Assembly (NCBI GenBank): GCA_963794945.1
Contig: CAWCFT010000018.1
Location: forward strand, 3,479-67,478
Direction of reading: 5' to 3'
From: Endomicrobiales bacterium
GTDB lineage: Bacteria; Elusimicrobiota; Endomicrobiia; Endomicrobiales; CAWCFT01
DNA: 64,000 bases
How positions within the stretch are numbered: the stretch's first letter is position 1; each line of letters opens with the position of its first letter. Positions 9,154 to 61,193 of this stretch are shown in pieces. Under the pieces are notes generated by a model. The model saw nothing but the letters and a program-made list of their open reading frames with translations, did not search any database and was not told where the DNA came from. Made by a program: the position numbers and the translations under genes.

Positions 9154-9450
9154 AAGGCCATCAGTATCGAACGTAGGTATATTTTTCCCCCAGAACTAGA
9201 AGCGGCATCTCTTCCGCAAACAGGCGCTCAAACAATTGCAGAATTAACTCGTCTAAAGACTGTGTTGCCCCAATCGGAACGGAAAAGCCCAATATCTTGG
9301 GCCTTATTTCTGCGATCCGGTCAGCTAACTGTGCGTATTCTCCCGCGTTCATTGTTTGAGTATCAAAAAGATGCGGTGCAACTGAAGGGAAAGCGTGTTT
9401 AAGATATCCAACAAGAGAATATAGGCCTGATGGGGAATGGATAATATCCG
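8160..9450 (-). other. B12-binding-like domain plus radical-SAM core in A (split by the 9153/9161 frame break)
   Basis: ..PKILGFSVPIGATQSLDELI..MPLLVLG | (shifted frame) GKNIPTFDTDGLLAKYPKAICVVGEGE.. This is followed by the Cys cluster ACPWGRCTFCS (8875-8901; CX4CX2C rather than the canonical CX3CX2C) and ..VFLGVESGS..GFIMFDP. Confidence 0.6.
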
Positions 9451-11875
9451 TATATCTGGATGAAGTTAAATTGACGAATACAAAATTTATAACCTGTTCT
9501 ATATTCGAAATAGCCTTGAGCGAGTTCGACATCTTTGTTGACAGGAAATTATCGTTGGCACTCGCTTCTGGTTTATCAGTCTGGGGAGAAAGCCCTGTCA
9601 GCTCAAGAAGGATAATGGCCAATACTTTTTTTACAATATTTGATTCATTTTTAAGCGTGTTTATAGCATTTAAGCGTGCAAGTATCATGTTTTGAGCGGA
9701 ATCAGGCAGGCTGGCTATGTCTTCAAGGGGTATCCCTTCAATATCATTTCGAAGTTCGGGATTGTTCTTAATGATCTCATCTATCCCATGTATTAAACCA
9801 TAACCTGTTACATAATTCTCTCTTTCTGCAAACATGAACAGGTTTTTTAAAATAGAATATGTGTTAGGGCACAATGTGCCAAAATCGGCAGTATCTAAAG
9901 CGCCGGTTAGCAAGCTGTTTAGAACATTAAGAGCTACATTAACGGAAACAGCCGCTTGCGCTTTCATCTCACCTGTAAATGTTATCTCTTTTACTGTGCC
10001 TCCGGTTTCTTCTCTGGTTATATTTATAGTTCTATTATTAGCAAGTTCTATCGTTCCATTTGCAAAAGACGCTGATTTTACATTATTTTCTCCCAGAGCG
10101 TCTTTGATGGCTTTAACCAGCGCATCGAACTTATCCTGTGTTAGCGCCGACCCTGACAACTGATGCCTTGCTGCTTCCGACATTAACCTGACAAGCGCGT
10201 CCGTTTTCAATTCCGAAGCTATAGCCAGCGCTAGGCTGTTGGTTCTGAATTGCGCATTCTCTTCTAAAATTTTTGCCTGTTCCTTGGCGGATTCCGCGTA
10301 TAACAGGCTTGAACTTTTCGTACTCTGGCTGATATTAGGAGTTATCGTTATATATGACAACCCTTTGTCTTCCGCTATTTTCTTTAATCCTTGAGTGTGG
10401 AACCCTCCGGTTACTATAACCACTATTTCGGAATTTTTAAGCAGCCCTGAAATTGTAGTATTCTTAGCTGACGGTTCTGGTACACTTTTCCCCGAAACCT
10501 GAAACTCGGAACTCGGAACTGTTTTTAATTCTGTTATATTTTTAACAAAACATTCATTCCTTTTACAATTTGTGTCATAAAATTCATTAAGCAAAGTAAA
10601 ATCTTCACTGAGCTCTGAGACCCTGTCCCTGAAAGCGTATTTTGACCAGATGTCCTTGAATTTCCCGAAACGCTCAACAAAATACCCGTAATCATCCGCT
10701 GATATCTTATTGGATACATAATCTTTGAAATACCCGAAGAAATCGTTTAAGAACGATACTTCCAGCTCGCCTATATCGTTTGCAAATCCCACCCGTATCT
10801 CTTCGACAAGGCGCCTCTGTTCTTCAATCAGTTTTATCGGGTTGACGCCTCTGCTTTTTTCGTTATAATCGAAGAACTGCTTAAGGTCAGGATAACTGCT
10901 CCCAATATCAAGCCTGTACTCGCCGGCTATCTTTGAAAGGCAAACGTAAAGCTCGTCAAGTTTTGAAAAGTTATCGGTCTTTTCGGCCATATCGTTGTAA
11001 ACACCGTAGGGCACATCTCTCTTTACGGCTTGAACGAAATTCGACAGTTCTCCGGATATTTTTGGGTACTTTAAAGACCTGCCAAGCTCCATAAGCTCCA
11101 GGTAACCGCTTATGTTTGGATAATTGTTCATGTCGATGCTTAGCAGGTTGTTGTATTCCCCGGGGCTGGAATTTATATTACGCGCGTATTTGCACAACAG
11201 CCTGTAGAATTTTTCGGCTGGCATCTTGCCGCTCTTATATTCCTCTATCGAGCGGTTAAACCTCTTGTTCCGTGAGTTAAAATATTTGGCCTCCATTACC
11301 TGCAGGTCTTTTTCCAGGCCCTTGATCTTGTTGTTAAAGAATTCCTGTTTGTCCAGTATTTTACCGAGCCTGACAATGTTGGCTTCATGTACGTTCCGGT
11401 CTTCTATGCCTTTCAGCAAGCCCGGCCTGTTTGATTTGACAGAATAATATTCCGAGCCGGTCAGCTTGCCTTCATTAATAAGGTTCTCAATTATTGTTTC
11501 CTTTAATTCTTTATCTTTTATATTGCAAAGCCATGACGTGTCTACGTCCCCATAAGCGCCTTCCACATACACTTTCTTTAATCCGTATTTCGCATCAAGT
11601 TCGCTTAGTATCTTTGCTATGTTCCTCTGCACCTCGGCATGGCAGTGGAGGTCCTGAATGTTAACTATAACCCGATTGGACCGAGTGCCCGCAGGCGCGG
11701 CGGAGAAATCAGTAACCCTGCCAATGCTCTGCCCGATAACCTGTTCTTCCGCCAAAGGCTTAACTTTACCGGATTCCCCGGACATGTCGACAGCGGCGTG
11801 GACAGCCTGCCCAAATACGAACGACACTAGAAAACATGCCGTTGTAATGACCGCGATTAGTTTTTTGTAGTTCAT
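9161..11875 (-). CDS. Giant gene A, N-terminal segment. Holds the signal peptide, the N-terminal region shared with giant gene B, and the first half of a B12-binding domain.
   Basis: ORF track gives 9161..11989. I place the start at the ATG at 11875 (MNYKKLIAVITTACFLVSFVFGQAVHA). GGAGG lies 6 nt upstream and the alignment with the start of paralog B begins here. The segment ends 7 nt before the next ORF, at a GGGGGAAAAA run. Confidence 0.85.
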   Translation of the reverse strand: MNYKKLIAVITTACFLVSFVFGQAVHAAVDMSGESGKVKPLAEEQVIGQSIGRVTDFSAAPAGTRSNRVIVNIQDLHCHAEVQRNIAKILSELDAKYGLKKVYVEGAYGDVDTSWLCNIKDKELKETIIENLINEGKLTGSEYYSVKSNRPGLLKGIEDRNVHEANIVRLGKILDKQEFFNNKIKGLEKDLQVMEAKYFNSRNKRFNRSIEEYKSGKMPAEKFYRLLCKYARNINSSPGEYNNLLSIDMNNYPNISGYLELMELGRSLKYPKISGELSNFVQAVKRDVPYGVYNDMAEKTDNFSKLDELYVCLSKIAGEYRLDIGSSYPDLKQFFDYNEKSRGVNPIKLIEEQRRLVEEIRVGFANDIGELEVSFLNDFFGYFKDYVSNKISADDYGYFVERFGKFKDIWSKYAFRDRVSELSEDFTLLNEFYDTNCKRNECFVKNITELKTVPSSEFQVSGKSVPEPSAKNTTISGLLKNSEIVVIVTGGFHTQGLKKIAEDKGLSYITITPNISQSTKSSSLLYAESAKEQAKILEENAQFRTNSLALAIASELKTDALVRLMSEAARHQLSGSALTQDKFDALVKAIKDALGENNVKSASFANGTIELANNRTINITREETGGTVKEITFTGEMKAQAAVSVNVALNVLNSLLTGALDTADFGTLCPNTYSILKNLFMFAERENYVTGYGLIHGIDEIIKNNPELRNDIEGIPLEDIASLPDSAQNMILARLNAINTLKNESNIVKKVLAIILLELTGLSPQTDKPEASANDNFLSTKMSNSLKAISNIEQVINFVFVNLTSSRYTDIIHSPSGLYSLVGYLKHAFPSVAPHLFDTQTMNAGEYAQLADRIAEIRPKILGFSVPIGATQSLDELILQLFERLFAEEMPLLVLGEKYTYVRY
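10385..11675 (-). other. Conserved N-terminal domain shared by A and B (unassigned)
   Basis: VIVNIQDLHCHAEVQRNI..KKVYVEGAYGDVDTSW..LTGSEYY..(helical region)..IVVIVTGGFHTQGL. It aligns by eye along its length with B 21022..22300. It loosely resembles ChaN/TraB/Tiki-type GxxH...E...GxxH folds, which is speculative. Confidence 0.4.
11795..11875 (-). other. Sec-type signal peptide (or signal anchor) of A
   Basis: MNYKKLIAVITTACFLVSFVFGQAVHA|AVD: a basic n-region, a hydrophobic core and a VHA-A cleavage-like site. Confidence 0.6.
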
Positions 11876-11994
11876 TACAACCTCCACAGATATTAAGTCT
11901 TGTATTTTGATATATCCGCCTTTTCGGCGGGTTATTTCCCGCGATGCGATCACGGGAAATAAAAAAACCCGATCGCGCTTTATGCGCAACCGGG
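11876..11994 (-). promoter_or_regulatory. Structured leader upstream of giant gene A: a terminator-like hairpin with a U-run, then two further hairpins. Homologous to the leader of B.
   Basis: Read on the minus strand. H1 is cccggttgcgc/gcgcgatcggg (11968-11994) followed by T7 (11961-11967). H2 is atttcccg/cgggaaat (11934-11960). H3 is cccgcc-gaaaa-ggcgg (11916-11931). GGAGG and the ATG follow. Confidence 0.55.
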
Positions 11995-12480
11995 CGTGCA
12001 GATCCTGATAATAGCTATCTCTGCAGGAAGATTGCCCCTGGACAGCAACACGAAATACATAAGTAAGAATATACTTATAAACCCGCCATAGTGCTCATTC
12101 TGTTTCTCACCCGGCGGGCTGCCGTTTGAAACTTGAGCCCTGAAATTCTCTAACAATTTGCCATTATCCTTACTTAGGTTTTTGCTTATGTATTTGGCCA
12201 TACTCTTAGAAACAGCGTAAACACATGAGGTATTGTTACTATCAGTCCCCTGGGTGTCTTTATTGTGCCTATATTCGGGCTTCAGCGGCTCTCCGTTCTT
12301 TACCATATCCGCTACTGCCCGGCACGGCAAACCTATATTCCCAATGAAGTTAAATACCGGTGACTGTATATCGCCGCAATTAGGCAAAAAGCCGCCAGGT
12401 TCGGCCAAAACAGCGCCTAAACCCGCGAGACCGTTCACCAGCAGGCACAATACAATTAATAAAACAATTCGTTTTTTCAT
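11980..12480 (-). CDS. Small exported Cys-containing protein with a C-terminal hydrophobic helix, upstream of giant gene A
   Basis: ORF track gives 11980..12495. The likely start is MKKRIVLLIVLCLLVNGLAGLGAVLA at 12480. The protein has a signal peptide, scattered Cys residues, and the tail ..SPPGEKQNEHYGGFISIFLLMYFVLLSRGNLPAE... It has the same architecture and position as 20272..20763. Confidence 0.6.
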   Translation of the reverse strand: MKKRIVLLIVLCLLVNGLAGLGAVLAEPGGFLPNCGDIQSPVFNFIGNIGLPCRAVADMVKNGEPLKPEYRHNKDTQGTDSNNTSCVYAVSKSMAKYISKNLSKDNGKLLENFRAQVSNGSPPGEKQNEHYGGFISIFLLMYFVLLSRGNLPAEIAIIRICTPGCA

Positions 12481-12581
12481 TCTTAGTTCCGGCATAAGTA
12501 TACTGTTTGGTGATATTACCCTAAATTGATGAAAAAAATGAAAATATCTTGTGATATTATTGTAAAAAACGTTTGCGAAAT

Positions 12582-12610
12582 ATTATAGGGCTATTCCGCT
12601 GGAAATACAA
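12582..12610 (-). promoter_or_regulatory. Sigma70-like promoter for the small ORF / giant gene A unit
   Basis: The minus strand reads TTGTAT - 17 nt - TATAAT (-35 at 12605-12610, -10 at 12582-12587), about 100 nt upstream of the 12480 start. Confidence 0.4.
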
Positions 12611-12642
12611 GGGCTGTATATTGTTTTAAAAAATTGGGGGCT

Positions 12643-13164
12643 TTATTTAGACTGCTCGGCTTCCAGCTTATTAAAAGCTTTTTCAGCGTTTTCTTTAATG
12701 TATTTTTTTACGCTTTCGCTCAGTTCACTTACCTGTCCGGCCATGTTTTTCAGGTCTTCAATATTAAGCGCCGCAAGGGAATAGGCTGTTTTGCCGTTAT
12801 CCCAGCGGTCCGTTATCTTTATGCCTGAAACGGTGTTTGAGGCGAATGTTTTGACTGTATTTTCAATGTATTGTTCACCACTTGTTTTCTCGGGGTCAGT
12901 GGCTGAAGTTGAGGCCATATAATCACGCATCAGAGAAGTTGACATAACCGATATTTGCTTAGACACCTCGGCTATCGCGCGGTTGTCAGCGGTAGTACGC
13001 CTTAGGGCCGCGGAATTCACTCCTTCAACTATGCCAACACCGTAAAGCACCTTTTTCTCTTTAGGGAATGCGCCCGCGCCCTTAGTTACCCAAGCGGGCT
13101 TACCGCCGCCAGTCGCACAACCAAAAAGAAAAAATGCACTCATAATCAAAAGCGTTTTCTTCAT
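12643..13164 (-). CDS. LPP20-family lipoprotein
   Basis: Signal peptide with lipobox FLFGC, then ..PAWVTKG..VLYGVGIVEG..AALRRTTADNRAIAEVSKQISV.., the pattern typical of LPP20-like lipoproteins. Confidence 0.6.
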   Translation of the reverse strand: MKKTLLIMSAFFLFGCATGGGKPAWVTKGAGAFPKEKKVLYGVGIVEGVNSAALRRTTADNRAIAEVSKQISVMSTSLMRDYMASTSATDPEKTSGEQYIENTVKTFASNTVSGIKITDRWDNGKTAYSLAALNIEDLKNMAGQVSELSESVKKYIKENAEKAFNKLEAEQSK

Positions 13165-13233
13165 GATATCCTCCCTTTAATGGCCTTTCCAGACAGCGGC
13201 TAGTATTGAAAAACCGGACTATCGTTAACTTGT

Positions 13234-14646
13234 TTATTGAGCTGAACGGACTACGACAAAAGTTTTTTTGCCAGGCTTTATCATTACATCTCCAATCAGG
13301 CGCGACGAAACTTCCATGCCTGCCTTATCGAAATATTTTATGTTAACCGGATGCTGCCCCTGGGGCAGGATCAGGCGGGTAACTATGATCTTATCAGGCA
13401 GAGAACGCCATGAGCGTTTATCCGCAAGCTCTGTCGCTGTCGAGGCAGCCGTTAAAAGCTTTTTCGCGAGCCACCCGGACAACTCCCCGCTTGACTGCTC
13501 CACTTTCTGGCTTATGTTCCTGGCCAGCGCGAACTTTATAACAGACCTTACAATGGCCTTTATGCGGATCCTTGCTATCCTGTCATCAAGGCTTTTCTCG
13601 GCTATCCTGCCTATATCTTCGGCTATCTCGCCTTTTGCTGTCGCGATACCCGCCACAGATGCCTCAAGCCCCGTTATCTGATATTTTACCGGAACATACT
13701 TGGGGAAAGCCATCCTCACTTGCTCATCTGAGGCTATTGACCTCGCTATCGCCCCTGCCTGCTGCACCTGCTCCTGTTCGTCACCCTTCGCGTCAACCTG
13801 GCCTACATACGCCCATCCCCAGCCAAAACTGAATTCGAAGAAACTGTCTATCTTTTCAGGTGAAAAACCGTTATAGTCAAGCAGGACAAGCTCGCCGTAA
13901 CCAGCCGGGATTTTCACCGGTTCCACGTTCTTATAATTGTTCCTTATTTCTTGTATTTCATCGCTGAACCCCAGTATATCGGCTGTCCTGATGGCATCGC
14001 TGATAAGCTCTTTGGGAGTCGTCACGCCGTAATCTTTAACATACTGCTTGTAAGCTTCCAGAGCCTGCCTGTACGATATATATGCGTCGTTTGTCTCGCC
14101 CTCATTTTCGTAGAGCATGCCCATCAGGTAGCGGACGAACGCGTCTTCTTTGTAGACACTTTTATGGCCGTAGTTGGTCTGAAGTGTTTTAAGCAGCTGG
14201 TCAGCCTGCCTTGCCTCGACAAGGGCTTCCTGCTCCTGGCCAAGCATGATATAATTCAAAGATGAAAAAACATTTACCATAGCCCGTTCAAAATCTTCGC
14301 CGTAATACGGGCGCATGTTGTCGCTTATAAGGAAAGTTGAAGCTTCTGTAGTGACGCTTTTAGTAAAAAGGCTGAGCGAGAGCTTTTTTGCCCGTTCAAA
14401 AGCCTGGTTGCTTTCGGTGTAGTTGCCCGCAAGCTGGAGAAGCATGCCGCGGTCAAGATAATACATCAGCGCGTTTTTCTGGCCGTAGATGTCTTCCTTA
14501 GATTTTTCAGTTAGTGCGGCCGCGTCAGCGTATTTTTCTCTTGAAACAAGGCCGTTAAGCTCAGTGTAATACGCCGACCTTGTCGCGCAGGAGGCAATAA
14601 AGACAAGCGACACCAGCGAACATTTCAATATCTTTGAATATAACAT
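13234..14646 (-). CDS. Lipoprotein with N-terminal TPR-like repeats (family unassigned)
   Basis: 470-aa ORF with lipobox FIASC. It has TPR-like helical pairs (..YYLDRGMLLQLAGNYTESNQAFERA.., ..YLMGMLYENEGETNDAYISYRQALEAY..). It sits between two other lipoprotein genes on the same strand. Confidence 0.55.
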   Translation of the reverse strand: MLYSKILKCSLVSLVFIASCATRSAYYTELNGLVSREKYADAAALTEKSKEDIYGQKNALMYYLDRGMLLQLAGNYTESNQAFERAKKLSLSLFTKSVTTEASTFLISDNMRPYYGEDFERAMVNVFSSLNYIMLGQEQEALVEARQADQLLKTLQTNYGHKSVYKEDAFVRYLMGMLYENEGETNDAYISYRQALEAYKQYVKDYGVTTPKELISDAIRTADILGFSDEIQEIRNNYKNVEPVKIPAGYGELVLLDYNGFSPEKIDSFFEFSFGWGWAYVGQVDAKGDEQEQVQQAGAIARSIASDEQVRMAFPKYVPVKYQITGLEASVAGIATAKGEIAEDIGRIAEKSLDDRIARIRIKAIVRSVIKFALARNISQKVEQSSGELSGWLAKKLLTAASTATELADKRSWRSLPDKIIVTRLILPQGQHPVNIKYFDKAGMEVSSRLIGDVMIKPGKKTFVVVRSAQ

Positions 14647-14671
14647 TGATACCTCAAAACAAGAGAAAGCT

Positions 14672-14768
14672 CAAAGGTTCAAAAGTTCAAGGGTTAAAAT
14701 GTAGATTTCAAAACCAGTACTTGATCTTGAAATTTTACCAGCGGTTATCCTTGAACCTTTGAACTTTG
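14672..14768. repeat. Long imperfect inverted repeat (about 20-nt arms) in the intergenic gap between two lipoprotein genes
   Basis: caaaggttcaaaagttcaagg (14672-14692) pairs with ccttgaacctttgaactttg (14749-14768). A smaller inner hairpin is atttcaa..ttgaaat. Confidence 0.7.
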
Positions 14769-14791
14769 AATTTTTTATCTGTATTATATGT

Positions 14792-15394
14792 TTAGAATTT
14801 TGATCCCGGCCGTTTAATGAATTTCTTTATTTTTTTCTGGCCGATCCAGACTTTTTCGTTCGTTAGCATATCAATAAGCTCGAGGTCGACCTGATAATAC
14901 TTGACCTCTTTGTTGCCGGCTTCGTCTTCTATTGAATTGATCTGTCCTTTGAGCATGAAGTCAGCGCCATATTCATGGCCATTGGCTTTAGCGGTCGCAG
15001 GTTCGGCGTTTACAGCCTGTTCGGCGCGTTCATCGCGCACTTCGCCGCGCTGCTCTTTCGACGCCACAAAACCTATACGGCCAGAATTGATCAGTTCCCT
15101 CTCAAGGTCTTTAATGAAAGGTTCGGTGTTGATGTGTTCCATGCTCTTGTTGGCCACGGTCCCGACTATAACGCGCGGTTTCGTGTTCTTGGCTGTCTGG
15201 AAATCGCTTACCCACGGTCTTGAAAGGACGTCCGCAATCATCTCTTTCGAGACAAGCTGCGAATCGGTGTCGTTCCAGTTCCCCGAAAGGTCGATCTGCG
15301 CCGAGACATCTTCCCTCGTAACTTTAGGCGTAGAAGCGCACGACGCCAGAGAAAATACCACTGCTGCTGCAGTAAAACAAAAAAATTTACGCAT
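14792..15394 (-). CDS. LpoB-like (penicillin-binding protein activator family) lipoprotein
   Basis: Lipobox SLASC. ..DLSGNWNDTDSQLVSKEMIADVL..PRVIVGTVANKS..FIKDLERELINSGR..ADFMLKGQINSI..YYQVDLELIDMLTNEKVW matches the LpoB/COG3417-type pattern by eye. Confidence 0.55.
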   Translation of the reverse strand: MRKFFCFTAAAVVFSLASCASTPKVTREDVSAQIDLSGNWNDTDSQLVSKEMIADVLSRPWVSDFQTAKNTKPRVIVGTVANKSMEHINTEPFIKDLERELINSGRIGFVASKEQRGEVRDERAEQAVNAEPATAKANGHEYGADFMLKGQINSIEDEAGNKEVKYYQVDLELIDMLTNEKVWIGQKKIKKFIKRPGSKF

Positions 15395-15457
15395 TTTATT
15401 CCTCCTTGTATTATATTGAAAATATTTCCATAAGTTTCATCGCCAGTTGAAAATACA

Positions 15458-15664
15458 TTATATCCTGTTCTTTCCGGTAACGGATTTTTCCCTGTTGACA
15501 CTAAAGGGGCCAAAAACTTTTTGGATACCTGTTAAGAATTTTATATATTCGTCCAATGAATGTGAGCATTTAACATTTATGTCCCTTGCTTTAGCAAACA
15601 TCTTTTTTCTGTAGGGGCTATAAGCATCTTCGATCATTTCCTTTTTTTCTTCGTTACTTAACAT
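15458..15664 (-). CDS. Small hypothetical protein overlapping the end of the nucleotidyltransferase gene
   Basis: 68-aa ORF whose start overlaps the upstream ORF by 11 nt. No motif recognised. Confidence 0.35.
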   Translation of the reverse strand: MLSNEEKKEMIEDAYSPYRKKMFAKARDINVKCSHSLDEYIKFLTGIQKVFGPFSVNREKSVTGKNRI

Positions 15665-16207
15665 CTTCTACCGCCTTCAGAATTTTATCCAACTCATCTG
15701 CCTTCTTGAACAAATCGAAATACTCTATTACTATCTTCATGTTCAAAGTCTTGCGGTTTACTTTGATAAGGGTTTCAATATCCGACATATCCTTAGCGTA
15801 TCTTCTCGGATCGTTTATACTCGACTGCAGTTTTAGCCCAATAATATCTTCAGGAATAATGATTTTTGTTTTAAACTTGCCTCCAAGGACTTTTTTATCT
15901 TTCGCTCTTAAAAGCATTGCTCTAGAATATTTCCGATGCGCGTGCAAAAAATCAACCTTTCCAAGATCTTCCATTTTTCCCAGATAATTCGATATATCTT
16001 CGTTCTCATTAAGAGCTCATACCCGTAAGACAGCATGATTTTCTTAACTTTTTGCATATCATCTTTTTCCACCAGAAAATCTATATCTGTAGTTGCCCTC
16101 GTATAACCCGCCGAATGGAGAGCAAAACCTCGGATTAATGCAAAAGTTATTTTTTCCTTATTGAATTTTTCAAGAATCAATCTAAAAACTGATTCGAAAT
16201 CCATCAA
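15654..16207 (-). CDS. Nucleotidyltransferase-fold protein (one frame break near 16000)
   Basis: N-terminal piece 15908..16207 reads ..FALIRGFALHSAGYTRATTDIDFLV.. (a G-x-A...D-x-D minimal nucleotidyltransferase-like motif). The shifted frame reads ..YELLNENEDISNYLGKMEDLGKVDFLHAHR.. straight into 15654..15974. Confidence 0.55.
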
Positions 16208-16215
16208 CTAAACCT

Positions 16216-17373
16216 CTAATTATGTATGATCTTCTTAAATTTCCTTTTTCCGGCCTGAAGCACGCATTCTTTCTGGACCACCAGCACCTGGTCATTTGTC
16301 ATTTTTTTGCCATCCAGCTTTATCCCGCCCTGTTCAATGAGCCGCCTTGCTTCATTCTTGCTCTCCACGAGCCCGGAAGCTACCAGGATATCAACAAGCT
16401 TTAGCTCCTGCGAACCGCAAACATACGTTTCCATATCTTCAGGAATATCTTTTTTCCTAAATACTTTATCGAATTCAACCCGTTCATGTATTGCCGCCTC
16501 GCACCCATGATACAGGCTTGTTATCTCTTCGGCAAGGCTTGCCTTGGCCTCGCGCGGGTGCATCTGTTTTACTTCATTGAGGTCTCTCTGGGTCAGCAGC
16601 TCGAAATATTTTATCATGAGCGTGTCGGATATTGACATGACCTTTCCGAACATATCTTTCGGCGTATCGTTCAGCGCGATATAATTACCGTAGGATTTCG
16701 ACATCTTCTTTACGCCGTCCGTCCCTTCAAGGAGCGGCATAGTGATGACCACCTGGGGCTCCTGGCCGAAATCTCTCTGCAGCTCGCGCCCTACAAGAAG
16801 GTTGAATTTTTGGTCGTTTCCGCCGAGCTCGACGTCCGCCTTGATCGCCACTGAATCGTACCCCTGCATCAGCGGGTAGAGGAATTCCACTATGGATATC
16901 GGGCTCTCCGCTTCGTATCTCTTGTGAAAGTCGTCGCGTTCAAGCATCTGTGACACGGTATATTTTCCGGCCAACTTCAACAGCCCTTCTATGCCCATGG
17001 GATAAAGCCAGTGGCTGTTAAAAACAACTTCCGTCTTGGCCCTGTCGAGTATTTTAAAGACCTGGTCCTGGTAAGTTTTTGAGTTCTTGAGTATCTCTTC
17101 TTCGCTCATCATCTTTCTGGTTTCAGAGCGGCCGGACGGGTCGCCTATGCGGGCCGTAAAATCGCCTATCAAAAACACTATCTGGTGGCCAAGCTCCTGG
17201 AACGTGCGGAGCTTATTAAGCAGCACCGTGTGTCCGAGGTGGAGGTCGGGGGCGGTCGGGTCCACGCCGAGCTTTATCCTCAAAGGCCTGCCGGTCGAAA
17301 GTTTTTTCTTCAGTTCTTCGAAAGAGATGATCTCATTGGTTCCGCGTTTTATCTTTTCAATTATGTTATCCAT
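16216..17373 (-). CDS. tyrS: Tyrosine--tRNA ligase
   Basis: HIGH motif ([10 protein letters not shown]), KMSKS motif (KKMSKSYGN), and a C-terminal S4-like [15 protein letters not shown]. The length and order fit TyrRS. Confidence 0.93.
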
Positions 17374-17374
17374 T

Positions 17375-17830
17375 TTACTCCGGTTTTTTCTCCGTTGCTT
17401 TTTGCGTTTCCAGTCGTTCTTTTATCTTATTGTTCAGGGTTTCCTGAAGTGCCGGGTTATCTTTTGCCAGCCTTTGCACCACTTCGCCTGGCAGGAACAA
17501 TATTACGCTGTCGGACTCGGCCTTGATAGTGGCGGTCGCGGCGCGTGGCGTAAGCAGCGATATTTCGCCAAAATAACTGTTGGGCCCAAGCTCGGCCACC
17601 TTAACTTTATCTTTGCCTTTCCTTACCATAACCGCGACCGTCCCTTCTTCAACCAGGCACAGCCTTGAAGAGATCTCGCCCTGAAAAAGAACCGTTGCCC
17701 CCTGCCTGTAATTTTGTTTTTCAAGCCCCGCCAGCAGCTGGCCTATCTCGGCTTCAGTACAGACTGAAAAAAGCCCGGTTTTTATTATCGTTTCTTTTGC
17801 GAACCGCAAGTCCTGTTCGGTTATTTCCAT
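17375..17830 (-). CDS. Cyclic-nucleotide-binding domain protein (effector domain only)
   Basis: ..[45 protein letters not shown].. matches the cNMP-binding beta-barrel signature. No helix-turn-helix follows. Confidence 0.7.
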
Positions 17831-17924
17831 TTTTTGTCCCCGCTTTACCGGAGCGCCGTTTAAAAAGCGGCGCCAACTGTGAACTTATGACGCTAATTCT
17901 ATAGCCATCTTGTAAAGCGACATA

Positions 17925-18847
17925 TCAATATGCTTTTTTTTCTTCATCGCCGTTCTGAATAGGTATATCGGTTATTTTGCCTTGTGTTTTTACTACAAGC
18001 CGGTTCTTTTTACCCGATAAAAGCAGGTCAACGGCCCTTGTGCCGAACTGGCTGGCAAGAATCCTTGACCTTCCTGAGGGACTGCCGCCCCTTTGGATAT
18101 ACCCAAGCGAGCTGACCCTTGTTTCGTAACCGGTGCTCTTTAGTATTTTTTCCGCGAATTCGTGTGAACTGCCTGCGCCCTCGGCAAAAACCATGACGAG
18201 CGAAGTCTTTCCCTTGTGCCTGGCCTTGCGGAGCTGGCTCGCTATTTTCCCGATGTCGTTTTTACCTCGGGAATAAGTATGAACTCGGCGCCTGACGCAA
18301 CACCTATTGAAAGAGCGAGAAAACCGTGTTCTCTTCCCATCACTTCAACTATGAAAACACGTTCGTGGCTTGTCGCTGTGTCGCGGATCTTGTCTATAGC
18401 GTAAATGGCGGTGTCGAGCGCGGTGTCAAAACCGATGGTCTCGTCGGTTCCGTAAATGTCGTTGTCGATCGAGGCGGGGATGTTGATCACCGGAACGCCG
18501 TGCTTGGAAAAAGTGTTGCCCGCGGCAAGCGAACCGTCGCCGCCGATTATAACGAGCCCGTCTATTTTCATGTTTTTGAGATTCTTTAATGCTTTATTGA
18601 GCCCAGATGCAGTGCGCACTTCCGGGCACCTGACGGTTTTAAGTATCGTCCCTCCGCGGTTGATTATGCCGCTGACGGAGCGAAGGCTCATGTGTGAATA
18701 CTCGTTATCGATCAACCCGCAAAAACCTCGCTGTATACCAATGACTTCCAAGCCGCTGTAAATGGCCTTGCGCACAACCGCGCAAATTGCCGCGTTCATG
18801 CCTGGAGCGTCACCGCCTGAAGTTATTACAGCTATCTTTTTCATCAT
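17925..18847 (-). CDS. pfkA: ATP-dependent 6-phosphofructokinase (one frame break near 18240)
   Basis: KKIAVITSGGDAPGMNAAI..RGGTIL..IGGDGS..GIPASIDNDI..VEVMGR.. (18242..18847), then ..VFAEGAG..LGYIQRGG.. (17925..18194). The shifted frame bridges them (IPEVKNDIGKIASQLRKARHKGKTSLVMVFAEG) at an A5 run. Confidence 0.9.
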
Positions 18848-18898
18848 CGCAGAAATACCTTGTATTGATGTTTCAATTATTTTGGATTTATCACCGGA

Positions 18899-19856
18899 TT
18901 ATTGCTGAAGTGTTACAAGTCCCCTGAACTCGTCTAGTATATCCGGGTCCCACCAGCCTTTTCGCGATTCCTCTTCCATTATGGAGAGAGCGACATCCGG
19001 AGTAAGCGCCGTCCTGTATGAGCGGTTTGTTGTTAGCGCGTCATAAACATCTACTATTGCCATGACCCTCGCCACGACCGGCACCTGGCTGCCCTTGAGC
19101 CCGTCAGGGTAGCCGGAACCGTCAAGTTTTTCATGGTGGTATCTTATTATGCTTAACGCCGCTTTCATGGAATTGAGCGGCTTACAGATCTTTTCACCGC
19201 GGTCCGGATGGGTGCGGATGGTAGTGAACTCTTCCGGCGTGAGCCGTCCCGGTTTGTTAAGAATAGCGTCGGGAATGGCTATCTTTCCTATATCGTGGAG
19301 AATGCCGCCCTTGTATAATGCGTTCTGTTCGTCTTCCGGCAGGTTCATCTTGTGCGCCAAAATAACAGCGAACTGGCTGACCCGTTCCGTGTGGCCCTGA
19401 GTATAAGTATCTTTCGCTTCTATGGCGCGGGCAAGCGCGAATATAACGCTCTCGGCGGAGTCTAGCTGGTCGTAAAGTGTTTTTACTTTGAGAAGGGATT
19501 TTATGCGGGTGATGAGCTCGATAGATTTATAAGGCTTGTTGACGAAATCGTCCGCGCCGGACTCTATGGCCTCGATCTTGTCAGGTGTCTCGGTAAACCC
19601 CGTCAGCATTATCACAGGAATGAAACGCGTGGAGGTGTTGGCTTTTACCTGCCGGCAAATGTCGCTGCCCGATATCCCGGGCATGTGGTTGTCCAGTATT
19701 ATCAGGTCTCGGCCGCTCCGAAAATATCTTTTCGCGCGCCGCGTGGCCCTCGCCGGCAGTTATAACTTCGTAACCATTGCCGATCATTATCTGCTCGAGC
19801 ACGCCCAGCGCCTGCGGGTCGTCGTCGGCAATAAGTATTATGGGTTTTTTGTCCAT
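18899..19856 (-). CDS. Response regulator with an HD-GYP (c-di-GMP phosphodiesterase-type) output domain (one frame break near 19709)
   Basis: Receiver MDKKPIILIADDD.. | ..DLIILDNHMPGISG..VIMLTG..DDFVNKP. HD-GYP domain HTERV..ILHDIGK..HHEKLDGSGYPDGL. The two ORFs (19581..19874 and 18899..19684) join after removing 1 nt. Confidence 0.85.
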
Positions 19857-20113
19857 TAGTTGAGATTCTACCAAAGTCGGCGGGTTATGTCAACGTTGGC
19901 GCGCTCGGGATCAATTTATTCCCTAAAGGGTATTTCCAAATTAATACTTTGGGGTTGGTCATAAAAAGATCCGCCCCTACGGCTCTGCGGACAAGCTCCA
20001 GACATCGCAGCCTTCTTTGGATTTGAGCCTTCCACTAAGGAAAGGTTCCGCCAAGGCGGATAAACTCCACTCAAAACACTTTTTATCAAGTTAATCGCTC
20101 GCTCCTATATAGA

Positions 20114-20154
20114 AACCCCCAAAGTTATTTTTAAGTGAAAACTTTGGCGGGGTT
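20114..20154. repeat. Imperfect hairpin/palindrome upstream of the giant gene B promoter. One arm recurs at 19946-19956.
   Basis: aacccccaaagt (20114-20125) and actttggcggggtt (20141-20154) are near reverse complements. actttggggtt occurs again at 19946-19956. Confidence 0.5.
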
Positions 20155-20171
20155 AACTACATATCCATCTA

Positions 20172-20194
20172 TGTGATTTTTCAGAAATTTCACA
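20172..20194. promoter_or_regulatory. 23-bp imperfect palindrome (operator-like) just upstream of the -35 box
   Basis: tgtgatttttcagaaatttcaca: the TGTGA and TCACA ends are separated by 13 nt, with an AT-rich self-complementary interior. Confidence 0.35.
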
Positions 20195-20202
20195 GTTTTT
20201 CC

Positions 20203-20231
20203 TTGACTAGTACCTGTATAAAACTTATAAT
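20203..20231 (+). promoter_or_regulatory. Near-consensus sigma70 promoter for the small ORF / giant gene B unit
   Basis: TTGACT (20203-20208) - 17 nt - TATAAT (20226-20231), about 40-60 nt upstream of the candidate starts of the next ORF. Confidence 0.6.
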
Positions 20232-20271
20232 TTATCAGATAATATTATAAATATCAGGTAATTACTGTGTA

Positions 20272-20763
20272 TTGCCTGAAAGGAACTATTTTTTGACCTT
20301 GAAATTCCTCAATTTATTCGTTTGCCTTATAACAATTCTGCAGATCACCGCCGCGGGGGTCAGTATATCTCCCGCGCGAGCCGGTTCGTGTGCTCTTTTG
20401 GGCACATACACGGCCGATTGCGAGCGCGTCAACGATTTTGTCGTTTCAACCTCTCCTCTTGGCGAACAATTCAAATGCGCGGCACCTGTAAAACCAAACG
20501 CTGATATTTTCTTTGCCATGCCTGAAATACGTAAGGCAAATGAACAGGCCCTGAAACAGTTCAGGCTTCCTTGCGTTGAGGCAAATTCATTCACCTGCAG
20601 TGAGGGTTTCGTGCTGCTGGACAAAAAATGGTCAGGCCCGCCGGGCCGGTCTTCTCCTCCTATTGCATATTTCATTTTGTTCGCTATAATACTCGCGCTG
20701 AGCAATTTGCCTGCGCCTGTTTCTTGCTTTGCTCGTTCGGTAAACCGCCCGGCTAGACGTTGA
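20272..20763 (+). CDS. Small exported Cys-containing protein with a C-terminal hydrophobic helix, upstream of giant gene B
   Basis: The start is uncertain: TTG at 20272, or TTG at 20293 preceded by AAAGGA. The protein has a hydrophobic N-terminus (LKFLNLFVCLITILQITAAG), 7 Cys, and the tail ..GPPGRSSPPIAYFILFAIILALSNLPAP..RR. It has the same architecture and position as 11980..12480. Confidence 0.55.
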   Translation: MPERNYFLTLKFLNLFVCLITILQITAAGVSISPARAGSCALLGTYTADCERVNDFVVSTSPLGEQFKCAAPVKPNADIFFAMPEIRKANEQALKQFRLPCVEANSFTCSEGFVLLDKKWSGPPGRSSPPIAYFILFAIILALSNLPAPVSCFARSVNRPARR

Positions 20764-20831
20764 AGCCGGGTTTTTTATTTGCTGAGGCAAATAACCCGCC
20801 GATGAGGCGGGTATACTGGTACAAGGGCTTT
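20748..20831 (+). promoter_or_regulatory. Structured leader upstream of giant gene B (homologous to the A leader)
   Basis: H1 is cccggct/agccggg (20748-20770) followed by T6 (20771-20776). H2 is atttgc-tgag-gcaaat (20777-20792). H3 is cccgcc-gatga-ggcggg (20795-20811). The strings cgggtttttt(t)attt, aaataacccgccga..aggcgg.tata and tacaag are shared with A. Confidence 0.55.
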
Positions 20832-20912
20832 ATGAACTTCAACAAATTCATTTCCATTATCACAACGGCCTGCTTCCTGGTGTCGTTTATAGCGTCGCCT
20901 GCTGTGCAGGCG
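20832..20912 (+). other. Sec-type signal peptide (or signal anchor) of B
   Basis: MNFNKFISIITTACFLVSFIASPAVQA|MQA; the core ITTACFLVSF is identical in A. Confidence 0.6.
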
Positions 20913-22238
20913 ATGCAGGCGCCAGTTCCCGGACAGCTGGATTTCAATAAAGCAGCGGAAGGGCTTAACCTACCCGGAACCGTTGGCAGAGTAACCGGCG
21001 GCAAGATTTTTGGAGACGGCCTTCTGGTAATAAATATTCAGGACTTGCACTGCCATGCGGAAGTGCAGAAAAATATAAGCCGCATACTCGAAATGATAGA
21101 AGCGCAGTACGGGCTAAAGAATGTCCTGGTGGAAGGCGCGGCAGGAGATGTGGACACTTCCTGGCTTACCAGCCTTAAAGATAACGCTCTGAAAAAAAAG
21201 ATAGCCGAAACACTGCTTAACCAAGGCAGGCTTACCGGCGCCGAGTATTATTCCGTTCTAAACAATAAGCCCCGCCTGCTAAAGGGGCTTGAAGATGAAA
21301 AGCTCCATACAGAGAACATCGCGCGCCTGGGCAAGATCCTTGAGCGCAGGCCGGTGTACGATCAAAAGATCAAAAAACTCACTGAAGACCTTAACTTTTT
21401 AGAAGCTAAATATTTCAGCTCACGAAACAGGAAGTTCAACAAAGCTCTCGAAAGCTATAAAGAGGGCGGAATGACTCCTGAAAAGTATTACACGCTTCTT
21501 GTCAAATACGCTGAAAAAATAAACAACGGTTCCAACCCTTTCAACCCAGTATTGGCTATAAGGGTAAAGGACTATCCAAATATAGCCGGCTATCTAAATA
21601 TGATTGAAGCTGGCAAGCGTATAAGATACAACCGGGTAGGATACCAACTGCAGGGTTTTGTACAACAACTGAAAGCCAAACTACCCTACAATGAATATAC
21701 TAAACTGATAGAAAAAACAAACAATTTTGCGAAGCTTGACCAGGCCTACCTATCGCTGGCCCAGATATCAGAACAGTACCACATGCATCTTGAAGGCGAA
21801 TATCCAGACCTTGCCGCTTTCTTTGAGTACCTTGAAAAGGGGCGGAAGGTCAACCCGATGGCTTTGATAGATGAGGAGAGGCGGCTTACTGAAGCCGTGC
21901 GCATAGGCCTTGCGCGAAATGTTGCGGAATTAGAAGTGTCATTTGCCGCTGATTTCTTCGTGTGTTTTAAAGATTACCTGCTCAACAGGCTTTCCGCGGA
22001 TGATTACGAGTATTTCACCCAGCGGTTCGATAAGTTCAAAACTATCTGGGGCAAGTACGTTTACGCGAACCGCCTTAATGATATGTCTGCCGATTTCGCC
22101 CTTCTTGATGAGTTCTACCGCGTTAACAACGAACGCAGCCGCAGCTTTTACAGAGCATGGCAAATTGCATTAAGTGCCCTTCAGCAGGGGAAGAAAACCC
22201 CAGCTGCACGGATGTTACAGCTTCCCTCCCCCGGCTGA
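20832..22238 (+). CDS. Giant gene B, segment 1 (signal peptide plus the N-terminal domain shared with A)
   Basis: ORF track gives 20760..22238. I place the start at the ATG at 20832 (MNFNKFISIITTACFLVSFIASPAVQA), where the alignment with the A start begins. The segment is alignable to A along its whole length. Confidence 0.85.
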   Translation: MNFNKFISIITTACFLVSFIASPAVQAMQAPVPGQLDFNKAAEGLNLPGTVGRVTGGKIFGDGLLVINIQDLHCHAEVQKNISRILEMIEAQYGLKNVLVEGAAGDVDTSWLTSLKDNALKKKIAETLLNQGRLTGAEYYSVLNNKPRLLKGLEDEKLHTENIARLGKILERRPVYDQKIKKLTEDLNFLEAKYFSSRNRKFNKALESYKEGGMTPEKYYTLLVKYAEKINNGSNPFNPVLAIRVKDYPNIAGYLNMIEAGKRIRYNRVGYQLQGFVQQLKAKLPYNEYTKLIEKTNNFAKLDQAYLSLAQISEQYHMHLEGEYPDLAAFFEYLEKGRKVNPMALIDEERRLTEAVRIGLARNVAELEVSFAADFFVCFKDYLLNRLSADDYEYFTQRFDKFKTIWGKYVYANRLNDMSADFALLDEFYRVNNERSRSFYRAWQIALSALQQGKKTPAARMLQLPSPG

Positions 22239-22300
22239 ACCCTAAGGAAATAATCGTTACAATTACAGGCGGTTTTCACACCAGGGAGCTCCAGCGCCTG
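21022..22300 (+). other. Conserved N-terminal domain shared with A (unassigned)
   Basis: LVINIQDLHCHAEVQKNI..KNVLVEGAAGDVDTSW..LTGAEYY..IIVTITGGFHTRELQ, collinear with A 10385..11675. Confidence 0.4.
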
Positions 22301-25300
22301 CTCCAGGAAAAAAAGGTTTCCTGCCTTACCGTAACCCCGAATGTCAGCAAAGGAACGGAAGAATCTAACGCTATTTATATGCATTTGGCCAGCCAGCAGG
22401 CGGCTGTTTTGAATAATCCTCAACTTAGGCCCAGTAGCGCGGCGGCAAAAACCATCAATTCAAATGCCTTACAGCTAGCCATAGAAAGCGTTCAGTCCGG
22501 TAACGCCAAGCTGGAAGCAGTCGCTAACGCGCTTTGGTCTTACGCGTTAACCACTGCTGATTTAAACGCTGTCAAAGATGAAATAGAACTGTATTTACAA
22601 TCAAATTCTATTAGCGGAAGTGCCAGCATTGACGCCAAGGCAGAAGCCATTGTTGTAACTTGGAAAGACGTTTCCGGCCAGAGCCGCACCATAACCATAA
22701 GTAAAAACGCGGAGTTCGGCAGCCTGACTCTATCCAGCCGGGCTCACAGCCTGTTAAATGACATACTCCCCAGCCTAAAAGCAGGCGAACAAGCAGAAAA
22801 AACCGCAGTTGGCTCTTTCGTTCTGCCGGTTGAATCAATGGTGGCTATGGGAAGCCTGATAGTTGAGGTACTGGCATCCTTAGAGCTGTCGCTTGCGGCT
22901 GACAGCCTTGTTACCGGGGACGGCCTGATATACGAAATATCTCATAATGAAGAACTGCAGAAACTGCTTGAAAAACAGATCAATATTGATATGCAGAAAT
23001 TAGGCCAGCTGCCCGACTGGCTTCAAAGGGCCCTTGCTGTAAGGGGCAAAGCCAGACAAGGCATTGCCGCAGAGCTTTCCAAAGAAGACCAAAGTGCGCT
23101 TATGAAAGCGCTTCTTTCAATACAGCCGGTATATGACCTTCTTGTTTCGTTAAATGCGACAAGGGTGATCGACAGCCGGCAAGCCAAGCCTGATACCGGT
23201 TTAAAAAATGGAAATGTTAAGAAAAGCAATTTCTATAATTACATTAGAGGCGGGTTTGTCGAAGAAAAAGATCTTCCAATTACAGACTTGCAAAAAGATA
23301 CTATAAACATGCTCGCGAAACAAGCGGGTATAACTATAAATGGTTTAGAGAATATCAGCTGGAAAGAAGCGCACAGAGTTGAAACTCTTCTAAAGATACT
23401 GCCCCAGAACCATTTAAACCGCGTAAAGAAAGTTAACTATATCGTGAAAATTTTAAACCCACTTGTGTCGGGCTGGACCGATTTTGCAAGTAAGACCATT
23501 AATATAGTTGCAAAGAAAAGATTTAATCATGATTATGGCGAAGTGTTCGTGCACGAGCTTGGGCATAAAGTTGACACCTCTCCTTATGCCATAAAAATAA
23601 TTCAAAGTCTAATGGATTTTTTGCTTACCTGCGCTTTATACTGGGTTGTTATGCGTGTAATTTTCACTGGCGATCAAATGAGTTTTCATAATGCGGCGTT
23701 TGACATTGTTTCGGTCTTTGTTATAACTGCAATTTCCTATATAAAATCAAAGATAAAGGCGTCGATCGGCAGAAAAATGGTAAATACAAATTCTCGTATT
23801 AGCGAATACGCGGCTACTAACGATAGGGAAAACTTTGCTGAAAATTACGCGTATTATGTTATTTTTGGCGGTGAATTCAGGCGCCTAGCTGGAACTTCGG
23901 CCAAGCTTGCGAAACAATATCAAAAAATGAAAAAAATATTTAATGGTATTGAATATACAAGGAATGAAAATGATGATATTGTTATTCTAGAAAAAAATAG
24001 TGAAAATACAGTATTGCCAGCTGAAGACAAAGGCATGGGGCTGCAAGAACTAACGAAAGCATCTGATTTGGCAGTCTCGGCACAGCCTGACGCAAGCCAG
24101 GCACCCGCCGCCAAAGGAAGGCCCCGCAGTGCGCCTGCCGGCTCACAACGGTATTTACACAGGCTTATAGATGTTCTTAAACTGCTTCAGGATGAAAAGC
24201 TGACTAAAGATCGTTTTTTAGAGGCATACTATAATTTTGAGAATCTCTGCTCCAGCGCCCGTAAAGATTACAGTGAAAATATGTTCCTTTACAGGCGCGC
24301 AGAAGTCTTTAAGACCTTCCGTGTATTCACAAATCCGGAAACACTATGGGATAATACCGTCGCGGCTTCAATTCGCGCCAGCGCTGAAAACAGCATTCAA
24401 AGCCTGCAAAAAGAACTTTCGGCAATGGAAGCTGACACCGGCACTGCCATGCCGAGAGAAAGTATCTTCGATGGGCTGGAAGAAACACCCAATATCAGGC
24501 CGGTTTTAGCCGCCAACAAACCCGTTATAGCAATAATGGATGTGCACGGAACACTGATACAGTCAAGCTGGAAAGTGGCATATGAACAGGTATATTTCAA
24601 ATTAACGGGAAAGCGCCCTCCCGCTCAATGGATATTAGAAAAAGTTTGGAACAAGCCTGACAATGAGGTCGCGGCTATGCTGTCAACTCAAACGGGCAGG
24701 CCCGCTTCAGAAATACTGGATTTAATTAATAAAAACAAAAGCCTCGTAAAATCCAAAAGTGTCCCGCCTGCCCTTCCGGGAACCCTGGAATTGGTAAAAG
24801 CATTAAAGGAGCAGGGGGTTACAGTAAAAATTGTGAGCAACACCCCTGGTAAAATTGTTATCAATCAGCTGGAAAAAGCCGGATTCTTAAATTATATAAG
24901 CAGGGATGACATTTTTTATAACGACCAGCCCGCTTCAAAATATTTCCATAGGGCGAAAATAATCCAGAATATAATTACGCAAAACCCAGGTTTCAATATC
25001 GTTTACTTCGATGACAGCTTCAGAGAAATTTCAGAAATTTCAAAGCAATTTGGGAAACGGATGACAATTTTTGGCGTTCCTGATGGAAAAGGTATAGAAT
25101 CAGAGAACAACCGCGTGGAATTAATTAAGTCGGGCGCTCATTACATTGTGCTCCGTAAACAGGGGTTCCCGGTTGAAGATATACTTCGTTGGTTAGATAA
25201 AGCTCCGAAAACCATTAGCCCGGCAGACAATAACATAATTGAAAGCCAGCCTGGCCAGGAAATTGAACAGCATACAACTGCAACCCAAATTTTGACACAA

Positions 25301-26515: not shown

Positions 26516-26534
26516 AACCGTTGCCCGCGAAATT

Positions 26535-41355: not shown

Positions 41356-41400
41356 CGAGCTGTTTGACATCGAGAACCTCTTATCAAACCAACATCTTTC
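41000..41400 (+). repeat. Degenerate repeat Y, copy 3 (crosses the segment 4/5 frame break)
   Basis: ..RLSVELSG..GSLTLYIHQEFLNALY.. then, in the next frame, ..AQFVGEEVDELFDIENLL.., collinear with the Y1/Y2 elements LSVSR / LYIHQxFLxALF / AxEExQExAEIQKL. Confidence 0.5.
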
Positions 41401-58091: not shown

Positions 58092-58173
58092 ACAACGATT
58101 TCGGACCGAAAGGTTAATTTCGAAACAATGCCTGATTAATATTATGTTCCCGAATACCCAGGAGGAGCAGTAA

Positions 58174-59166: not shown

Positions 59167-59179
59167 GCTACAGGCACAT

Positions 59180-61159: not shown

Positions 61160-61193
61160 ACTGTCTTTAGATAGTTTAATTTCTCTTCAGCCT

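Follow-up and report, generated by a model that had tools for sequence, protein, structure and literature searches.

Giant genes of an Endomicrobiales bacterium with a conserved N-terminal head, a small upstream partner gene and variable enzymatic cargo

Giant bacterial genes are known but poorly understood, and a conserved, alignable handle on them is rare. Here we analyse two such genes, A and B, in a stretch of 64,000 nucleotides (nt) from an Endomicrobiales bacterium (phylum Elusimicrobiota; assembly GCA_963794945.1, contig CAWCFT010000018.1, positions 3,479 to 67,478), hereafter the window. Gene A lies on the minus strand and runs from an ATG at 11875 to 1660 (10.2 kb, ~3,404 codons once its frame is repaired); gene B lies on the plus strand, runs from an ATG at 20832 to 50692 (~29.9 kb, ~9,949 codons once its frames are repaired) and is probably a single gene of ~9,950 codons. 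Both start with an N-terminal region, the head, which is followed by enzymatic cargo, and both are preceded by a small partner open reading frame (ORF) and a terminator-like hairpin. In the following we document that the heads are homologous, that their family is large, that partner, hairpin and head occur together in a conserved order, that the partner's stop codon overlaps the hairpin, and that the cargo varies. We consider it rather probable that A and B are old, divergent copies of an abundant, lineage-specific cassette of the Endomicrobiales, in which the head would serve export, the small protein would be its partner, and transcription of the giant gene would be coupled to translation of that partner.

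An earlier note, made from the sequence alone, had aligned the beginnings of A and B by eye over more than 800 residues. Pairwise protein alignment bears out the homology, which is not confined to the signal peptide, and shortens it to ~755 residues: the frame-repaired proteins align in one piece, residues 1-754 of A with 1-762 of B (39% identity, E 3.6e-155), and the homology stops near window positions 9614 (A) and 23122 (B). With BLASTP, the ORF carrying the head of A matches the first ORF of B from amino acids (aa) 39-483 to 25-465 (50% identity over 445 aa, E 1e-159) and, with its residues 506-792, the second ORF of B (27% identity over ~320 aa, E 2e-19). The core of the signal peptide, ITTACFLVSF, is identical in A and B, and the window contains only these two copies of the head. 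Outside the head no similarity between the repaired proteins was found at E<=1e-3, in agreement with the suggestion of the note that different domain sets lie downstream.

The note had proposed to look for further heads in related genomes, and these are numerous. A set of 5.8 billion proteins contains 35 close relatives, every named one of which belongs to the Endomicrobiales or Elusimicrobiota, and the representative genomes of GTDB hold 178 head loci, with up to 10 per metagenome-assembled genome (MAG); most head ORFs at these loci are open to the end of the fetched DNA and longer than 2,500 aa. A profile search of 1.84 billion representative proteins returned 8,597 matches at E<=1e-3 (7,297 at E<=1e-10 and 3,388 at E<=1e-30), the weaker of which may concern cargo only, as the profile includes some cargo columns. 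In each of the best 150 library matches the head stands at the N-terminus, and the proteins are up to 7,833 aa long. Invariant features of the family are Q74, D75, L76, H77, E81, E105, G106, an LTGxE motif and GGFH493, with H77, E105 and H493 invariant or nearly so, and A and B each carry every one of the family motifs. The conservation of the N-terminal hydrophobic helix is likewise unusual, with C14 in 64 and F15 in 70 of 74 sequences. A single copy (L002, JBDRNO010000048.1) comes from a MAG labelled Bacteroidota; its ORF is cut at 302 aa, and it is probably mis-binned or degraded. At two further loci (L019, 83-5599; L021, 37-5994) the head gene is closely preceded by the end of another giant ORF, without a small ORF in between; the preceding ORF of L019 itself starts with a head, which indicates that head genes can stand in tandem.

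By contrast to the head, the cargo is highly variable, and the view that a conserved head, partner and leader are combined with changing enzymatic cargo is supported by the window and by the 178 related loci. The cargo regions of A and B resemble hardly at all either each other or the first ~2,500 aa of the other 80 loci, and the C-terminal domains of the 35 close relatives vary, comprising radical SAM, methyltransferases, HD_4/RelA-SpoT, SecA-DEAD, helicases and PHP. The cytidine deaminase of B matches the MafB19-like toxin deaminase model. Between aa 1480 and 9240, B contains internal repeats in the form of modules of 60-440 aa with 27-68% identity, several of them in three copies, and it appears to have grown by internal duplication. 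Directly after the head of B (~23400-23900, aa ~880-1000) a region with the motif HELGH yields sub-threshold matches to zinc peptidases (Peptidase_Mx1 with E 0.025, M90, ATLF); judged by the motif, such elements could be processing proteases. Two homologues (P0026, P0027) carry I-x-(I/M)-N-P...HELRH at the same place, and a recurring ...LYIHQxFLxAL... (B aa 2385, 3073 and 6799; A aa 2509) looks like degenerate copies of the HELGH element.

The small exported ORFs that had been noticed upstream of both genes lie where they were described and belong to one family, a relationship that is visible at profile level only. BLASTP between them is not significant (E 0.55), while a hidden Markov model derived solely from 47 small ORFs upstream of heads in other genomes ranks the ORF of A first (E 1.2e-20) and that of B second (E 0.0036) among the 655 ORFs of the window, the next one scoring 0.69. 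These 47 ORFs, selected for having a signal peptide and a C-terminal helix with an L-x-R-G/S motif behind it, lie on the same strand as the head, encode 160-210 aa and were found among ~70 head loci with enough flanking sequence. The family layout consists of a signal peptide, a weakly conserved LP-x-K-I-V-N, a polar low-complexity middle part, often PPG, and a hydrophobic helix with a juxtamembrane motif (LPRGAID, LTRRNI or, in the clade of the window, LSRGNLP). A partner homologue taken as an independent starting point (P0166) has a head gene directly downstream. Neither small ORF of the window has a match in Pfam or NCBIfam; for a C-terminal sorting signal of the PEP-CTERM kind no curated model matched, and 10-30 residues follow the helix. 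At two loci (L017, 5374-6000; L065) small ORF and giant gene share one frame uninterrupted by a stop codon, and partner and head may be fused there. In a rumen/gut clade of Endomicrobiaceae a conserved operon, none of whose genes occurs in the window, stands before the small ORF, ~0.7-3.4 kb upstream of the head start (L043, L045, L049-L051, L055-L058, L060, L061, L064 and L066); it encodes an unknown protein of 700-1,000 aa (6 loci), a protein of ~260 aa and an RHS-repeat protein of ~545 aa.

Between partner and head lies the leader, and the three homologous hairpins ascribed to it by eye are recovered by folding in both genes, with energies well below those of shuffled controls (A: -60 kcal/mol, z -6.7; B: -43.4 kcal/mol, z -3.05). 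The leaders share GGGTTTTTTATTT and a near-identical block, AAATAACCCGCCGAnnAGGCGGrTATA. The first hairpin, H1, has the form of an intrinsic terminator, i.e. an A-tract, a GC-rich stem and a T-tract, and the third, H3, is non-coding and 87% identical between A and B over 30 nt. In the family at large, a strictly defined terminator-like hairpin is present in the 300 nt before the head start at 39 of 73 loci, compared with 62 of 2,000 control windows (p 5e-35), and under looser criteria at 45 of the 46 loci having a small ORF. At 22 of these 45 the stop codon of the small ORF lies within the hairpin and at 17 the ORF reads through it (39 of 45 together), whereas among 56 control genes with a hairpin the stop lies inside in 2, the ORF reads through in 11 and the stop is more than 7 nt upstream in 43 (p 1e-10). 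The gap between hairpin and ATG of the giant gene is 92 nt in A and only 16-36 nt at several loci, which leaves no room there for a separate promoter of the giant gene. The overlap of stop codon and hairpin suggests that transcription of the giant gene may be coupled to translation of the partner.

The full three-hairpin arrangement has a narrower distribution. A metagenome scan with the H3 sequence found seven contigs, of which only L082 (Ga0265342_10000013) and L084 (Ga0118677_10241932) carry the module, the rest resembling generic terminators. On both contigs it comprises a T-run, a variable H2 flanked by ATTT...AAAT, and then AACCCGCCGAnnAGGCGGG. The module of L084 follows an ORF of the partner family; that of L082 precedes an ORF resembling a SAM methyltransferase with no head nearby, and the module may be a more general element. 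The stems of H2 differ yet pair in all four copies (A, B, L082, L084), although a MAFFT alignment of the four leaves the variable stems unaligned. No Rfam family reached its gathering threshold anywhere in the window, and E-value searches with the leader reached 12-22 bits at best, against thresholds of 39-100. Table 1 lists the features of the window.

Table 1. Elements of the two cassettes and the genes between them in the window
Feature	Position	Strand	Description
Promoter of A small ORF, sigma-70-like	12582..12610	minus	TTGTAT, 17 nt, TATAAT; read from sequence
A partner ORF, 166-171 aa	11980..12495 (or ..12480)	minus	signal peptide, Cys-containing exported part, PPG, hydrophobic helix, LSRGNLP tail
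A hairpin H1	11967..11995	minus	terminator-like stem, then T7; small-ORF stop TAA (11982-11980) in loop
A hairpins H2, H3	11962-11932; 11930-11916	minus	from folding
A head core, aa 1-545	10241..11875	minus	signal-peptide-like helix K..A..T..CFL, QDLH, E81, EG105-106, LTGxE, GGFH493, ~290-aa helical insert
A head extension, aa 546-754	9614..10240	minus	27% identical to B; present in only some family members
A cargo	1660..9613	minus	B12-binding/radical-SAM, PGM/PMM I-III, unannotated parts, two hydrophobic segments
A ORFs in assembly	9161..11989 (942 aa), then in another frame 1660..9153 (2,497 aa)	minus	
Island between A and B	12643..19684	minus	LPP20 lipoprotein, TPR lipoprotein, LpoB, TyrRS, cNMP-binding protein, pfkA, HD-GYP response regulator
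Promoter of B small ORF, sigma-70-like	20203..20231	plus	TTGACT, 17 nt, TATAAT; 11/12 matches
B partner ORF, 163 aa	20272..20763	plus	same family as A partner, divergent; PPG, helix, LSNLP
B hairpin H1	20747-20771	plus	terminator-like, then T6; small-ORF stop TGA (20761-20763) in loop
B hairpins H2, H3	20776-20793; 20794-20812	plus	from folding
B head, aa 1-762	20832..23122	plus	frameshift inside, ~22154-22199
B cargo	23123..50692	plus	HELGH at aa 906, HAD, HD_4, TPRs, two GNATs, GT2, cytidine deaminase, large internal repeats
B ORFs in assembly, frames changing	20760..22238, 22157..26515, 26535..28259, 28192..41355, 41258..50692	plus	

As to what the head might be, Pfam and NCBIfam gave no match to it in A, B or the 35 relatives, and its profile had only chance matches to PDB sequences. 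An AlphaFold model of aa 45-545 (predicted local distance difference test score, pLDDT, 88; predicted template-modelling score, pTM, 0.82) has an alpha/beta core interrupted by a helical insert of ~290 aa. In Foldseek searches of the PDB with two head models the erythromycin esterase EreC came first (6xcs, 6xcq), and HopBA1, the Ere-family proteins 2rad and 3b55 of Bacillus and ChaN were also returned, none of them significantly; EreC, 2rad, 3b55, HopBA1 and ChaN all belong to one superfamily of hydrolases and heme-binding proteins or are structurally related to it. The predicted succession of a strand leading to H77, a strand leading to E105 28 residues on, the helical insert, a further strand and GGFH493 would fit the Ere/ChaN/TraB-PrgY/Tiki proteins, and the spacing of His and Glu in EreB is similar to that of H77 and E105. 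It differs from the Ere superfamily in its first motif, which is QDLH rather than GxxH, in its much larger helical insert and in its fusion to a giant protein. No Pfam match of the core-only head sequences to PF05139, PF04187 or PF01963 was obtained, even at E<=10. We regard a relation of the model to the Ere/ChaN fold as a weak lead and not as membership.

On these grounds we propose a cassette that would consist, in this order, of a promoter, the gene of a small exported single-pass membrane protein, a terminator hairpin overlapping the end of that gene, and a giant ORF made up of a signal-peptide-like helix, a head of ~545 aa (~755 aa in the subfamily of the window) and enzyme domains that are unrelated and freely exchanged. 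The constant module that moves the cargo across or onto the cell envelope via the Sec route would be the head, its putative hydrolase core being of the erythromycin-esterase/ChaN/TraB type with H77, E105 and H493, and the small protein would act with it in the membrane. The cassette would be a single transcription unit, with the promoter before the small ORF. A ribosome finishing the small ORF, or reading through it, would keep the H1 terminator from forming; polymerase would enter the gene of 10-30 kb only on transcripts under translation, and the partner would be made in excess. The conserved overlap of terminator and stop codon predicts a control of RNA polymerase entry into genes of this size, and a Sec-type signal on cofactor-dependent cargo bears on the question whether Elusimicrobiota deliver enzymes into other cells. 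The head, by which thousands of giant proteins of a single lineage can be recognised, the dedicated small membrane partner and this overlap are three handles on giant genes. Head and partner also merit family models; the genes are now annotated as hypothetical fragments.

Several observations weigh against this proposal. H1 could simply terminate the small gene's transcript, and no small ORF is seen at about one in three of the loci whose upstream sequence is long enough. H2 and H3 are common to A, B and the two metagenome contigs and absent from the other 80 head loci, for which reason H3 was rejected as a family-wide motif. A cleaved Sec signal would place radical-SAM, GNAT, GT2, helicase and other cofactor-dependent cargo outside the cytoplasm, and no strong hydrophobic segment lies between the head of A and its radical-SAM/PGM domains. 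Pfam, NCBIfam and PDB offer no sequence or profile link of the head to Ere, TraB or ChaN, and the fold matches are weak (best E 0.11-0.19 in a range of 0.11-4, probability <=0.44, TM score <=0.29). Finally, the frameshift of A recurs in an independent Logan assembly (run ERR11523656) and is hence present in the read consensus.

A Sec-like N-terminus combined with cargo of cytoplasmic type allows three readings, namely export into the cytosol of another cell, tethering to the membrane, and extensive processing of the chain. Possible, if somewhat unlikely, is that the giant proteins are secreted multi-effector toxins whose cargo acts inside a protist host, prey or competitor, with the head as trafficking module and the small ORF as chaperone, dock or immunity factor; this would refine the proposed cassette rather than exclude it. 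Cargo that needs cytosolic cofactors (radical SAM, GNAT, GT2, RelA/SpoT-type HD_4, SecA-DEAD, helicases) agrees with such a role, as do the toxin-like deaminase of B and, as in polymorphic toxins, the constant N-terminus with exchanged cargo. The HELGH metallopeptidase-like module right after the head of B would fit too, although the peptidase matches are sub-threshold (E 0.025-0.95), and so would the RHS-repeat gene directly upstream of the small ORF in the rumen/gut clade, although this neighbour is limited to that clade and absent from the window; genes for TolC, HlyD and MacB at 56.7-62.7 kb provide a putative link. However, no RTX, CPD, PAAR, TPS or other trafficking, pore-forming or autoprocessing domain was detected in A, B or the 35 relatives, and no immunity-like gene was identified downstream. 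Less probable than this, in our view, are membrane-tethered mega-enzymes with an uncleaved N-terminal anchor and with head and cargo in the cytoplasm. The biochemistry of the cargo is indeed cytoplasmic, the conservation of the hydrophobic helix is unusual for a signal peptide, and in P0026 and P0027 the head is followed, by our reading, by a pair of hydrophobic helices, which would put the cargo on the head's side of the membrane; but positive residues precede the N-terminal helix and an A-x-A-like site follows it (consensus GQAVAA, positions 22-27), as is typical of a Sec signal that is cleaved and leaves the C-terminus outside. Slightly more doubtful still is a dedicated system, peculiar to the Endomicrobiales, for making and delivering giant multi-enzyme effector polyproteins, in which a Tiki/TraB/Ere-like hydrolase head and the partner would export, anchor or process the chain, translation of the partner would license transcription of the giant gene, the cofactor-dependent cargo would act in the cytosol of another organism (protist host, prey or neighbour), and the cargo would diversify by domain exchange and internal duplication.

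The coupling itself has to be weighed against ordinary terminators, i.e. hairpins that end the small gene in front of a giant gene with its own promoter, so that their overlap with the stop codon would have no regulatory role. The canonical shape of H1, the same module before an unrelated methyltransferase-like ORF on L082 and the 92 nt between H1 and ATG in A are what such terminators would lead one to expect; the many loci with only 16-36 nt in this place, and the strong enrichment of the overlap over control genes, make us judge them improbable, about as much as the tethered enzymes. Of the promoters assumed for our single transcription units, that of A was not flagged by the scan, its first hexamer having 3/6 matches. 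A recent inverted duplication acting as a recombination switch, which would invert the genes between A and B or swap their cargo, is hardly credible. Two homologous heads in divergent orientation would suit it; A and B, however, were sisters in only 1 of 100 bootstraps of a neighbour-joining tree of the first 445 residues, their proteins are no more than 39% identical, the inverted DNA matches between them are short and 71-87% alike (the longest have 112 nt with 71% identity, 50 nt with 80% and, in H3, 30 nt with 87%), and the intervening genes are not conserved near other copies. The invertible switch was rejected on tree and DNA identity.

The frame breaks raise the question of whether the cassettes of this genome still function. 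Neither A nor B is one open frame in this assembly. A is broken once, within a G5A5 run at ~9181-9190, which splits its B12-binding/radical-SAM domain, and B four times, at ~22.15, 26.51, 28.2 and 41.3 kb, the same repeated modules resuming in the next frame each time. Similarly, pfkA (17830-18847, broken at ~18240) halts at position 196 of its 277-position Pfam model and resumes in another frame, and the HD-GYP response regulator (18899-19900, broken at ~19700) has lost the front of its receiver domain to a frameshift. Together with those of A and B this makes at least eight frame breaks in 64 kb, for which either an error-prone assembly or a decaying genome may account; an alternative genetic code was ruled out, as every continuation lies in a different frame. 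Most likely A and B are broken by single-base indels that are probably assembly errors. That the frameshifts are genuine and the cassettes decaying pseudogenes appears very doubtful. The five breaks in A and B, those in pfkA, the response regulator and a gene at 51-56 kb, and the recurrence of the break of A in the Logan assembly would be in line with decay, but damage to a core glycolytic gene within the same 64 kb argues for sequencing or assembly error rather than selective decay. Moreover, the breaks fall in or close to short homopolymers (G5A5 in A, 4-6 bases long in B), both homology and long stretches of open frame continue without loss past each of them, and in other genomes the genes are intact over more than 2,500 aa.

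The cassette has partial counterparts in known systems. MARTX and polymorphic toxins combine a constant N-terminal module with exchangeable cargo and occur in several copies per genome with different cargo. A, B and their relatives are similar to them in the constant N-terminus, the variable C-terminal enzymes, the several copies per genome and the presence of deaminase- and GNAT-type cargo; they differ in the lack of RTX, CPD, PAAR, RHS and TPS within the proteins (by Pfam, in A, B and the 35 relatives), in a partner that lies upstream instead of an immunity gene downstream, and in cargo of many kb that consists mostly of metabolic-type enzymes. As in two-partner secretion (TpsB/TpsA), a partner gene precedes a very large exported protein with a conserved N-terminal module, but the partner here has ~170 aa and one C-terminal helix with no Omp85 barrel, and no TPS domain was detected. 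A further parallel is ribosome-dependent attenuation, or the suppression of intrinsic terminators by coupled translation, of which the pyrBI and trp types are examples. Here, too, the terminator sits where a ribosome finishing the upstream ORF would cover it, and termination should therefore depend on how closely translation follows transcription; the upstream ORF of this putative coupling is, however, a full membrane protein of 160-210 aa and not a short leader peptide.

Together with MARTX and polymorphic toxins, the nearest resemblance is to the giant genes of Omnitrophota, an uncultivated lineage with ORFs of tens of kb (West-Roberts et al. 2023, bioRxiv 10.1101/2023.11.21.568195). Both share an N-terminus without identifiable domains beside a predicted signal peptide, scattered transmembrane segments and cargo including Radical_SAM, HAD_2, TPR and HATPase_c, and A and B have the combination that characterises the Omnitrophota type, namely an ORF of more than 10 kb, an N-terminal signal or transmembrane segment and mixed enzyme, TPR and HATPase domains. 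The present genes belong to another phylum, their head is a defined, alignable family of 545-755 aa, no N-terminal C39 or S8 peptidase was found in them, and the window has a TolC/HlyD/MacB set instead of pilZ or type II/IV secretion neighbours; an upstream small partner with an overlapping terminator was not met in the portion consulted. Our literature search found no paper on giant genes in Endomicrobia, nor on the head, the partner or the overlapping terminator.

Concerning the arrangement of the two genes, the earlier note had described an inverted pair of paralogs around a housekeeping island. The divergent orientation across ~8.3 kb of ordinary genes stands, but neither a recent duplication nor a functional pairing follows from it: the phylogeny of the heads, which the note had named as a check, does not unite A and B as a duplicate pair, and each is at least as close to copies of other genomes as to the other. 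No homologue of an island gene was found within 6 kb upstream of other head loci, and the island was accordingly rejected as a part of the cassette. The inverted arrangement is real but looks incidental.

Some observations concern the remainder of the window. GC skew and AT skew flip sign at ~19800-20300, where the coding strand switches; a replication origin near 20 kb was rejected, as DnaA-box-like sites are not enriched (10 found, 14.4 expected). The genes following A (746..1703) and B (51017 on) have no informative domains except a HATPase_c in 52030..56334. This domain belongs to a frameshift-split, headless gene of ~1,770 aa directly after B (51017-56334). About 6 kb downstream of B, the region 56763-62725 encodes a TolC-like OEP, an HlyD-like adaptor and two ABC transporters of MacB type, the gene of the second being frameshifted.

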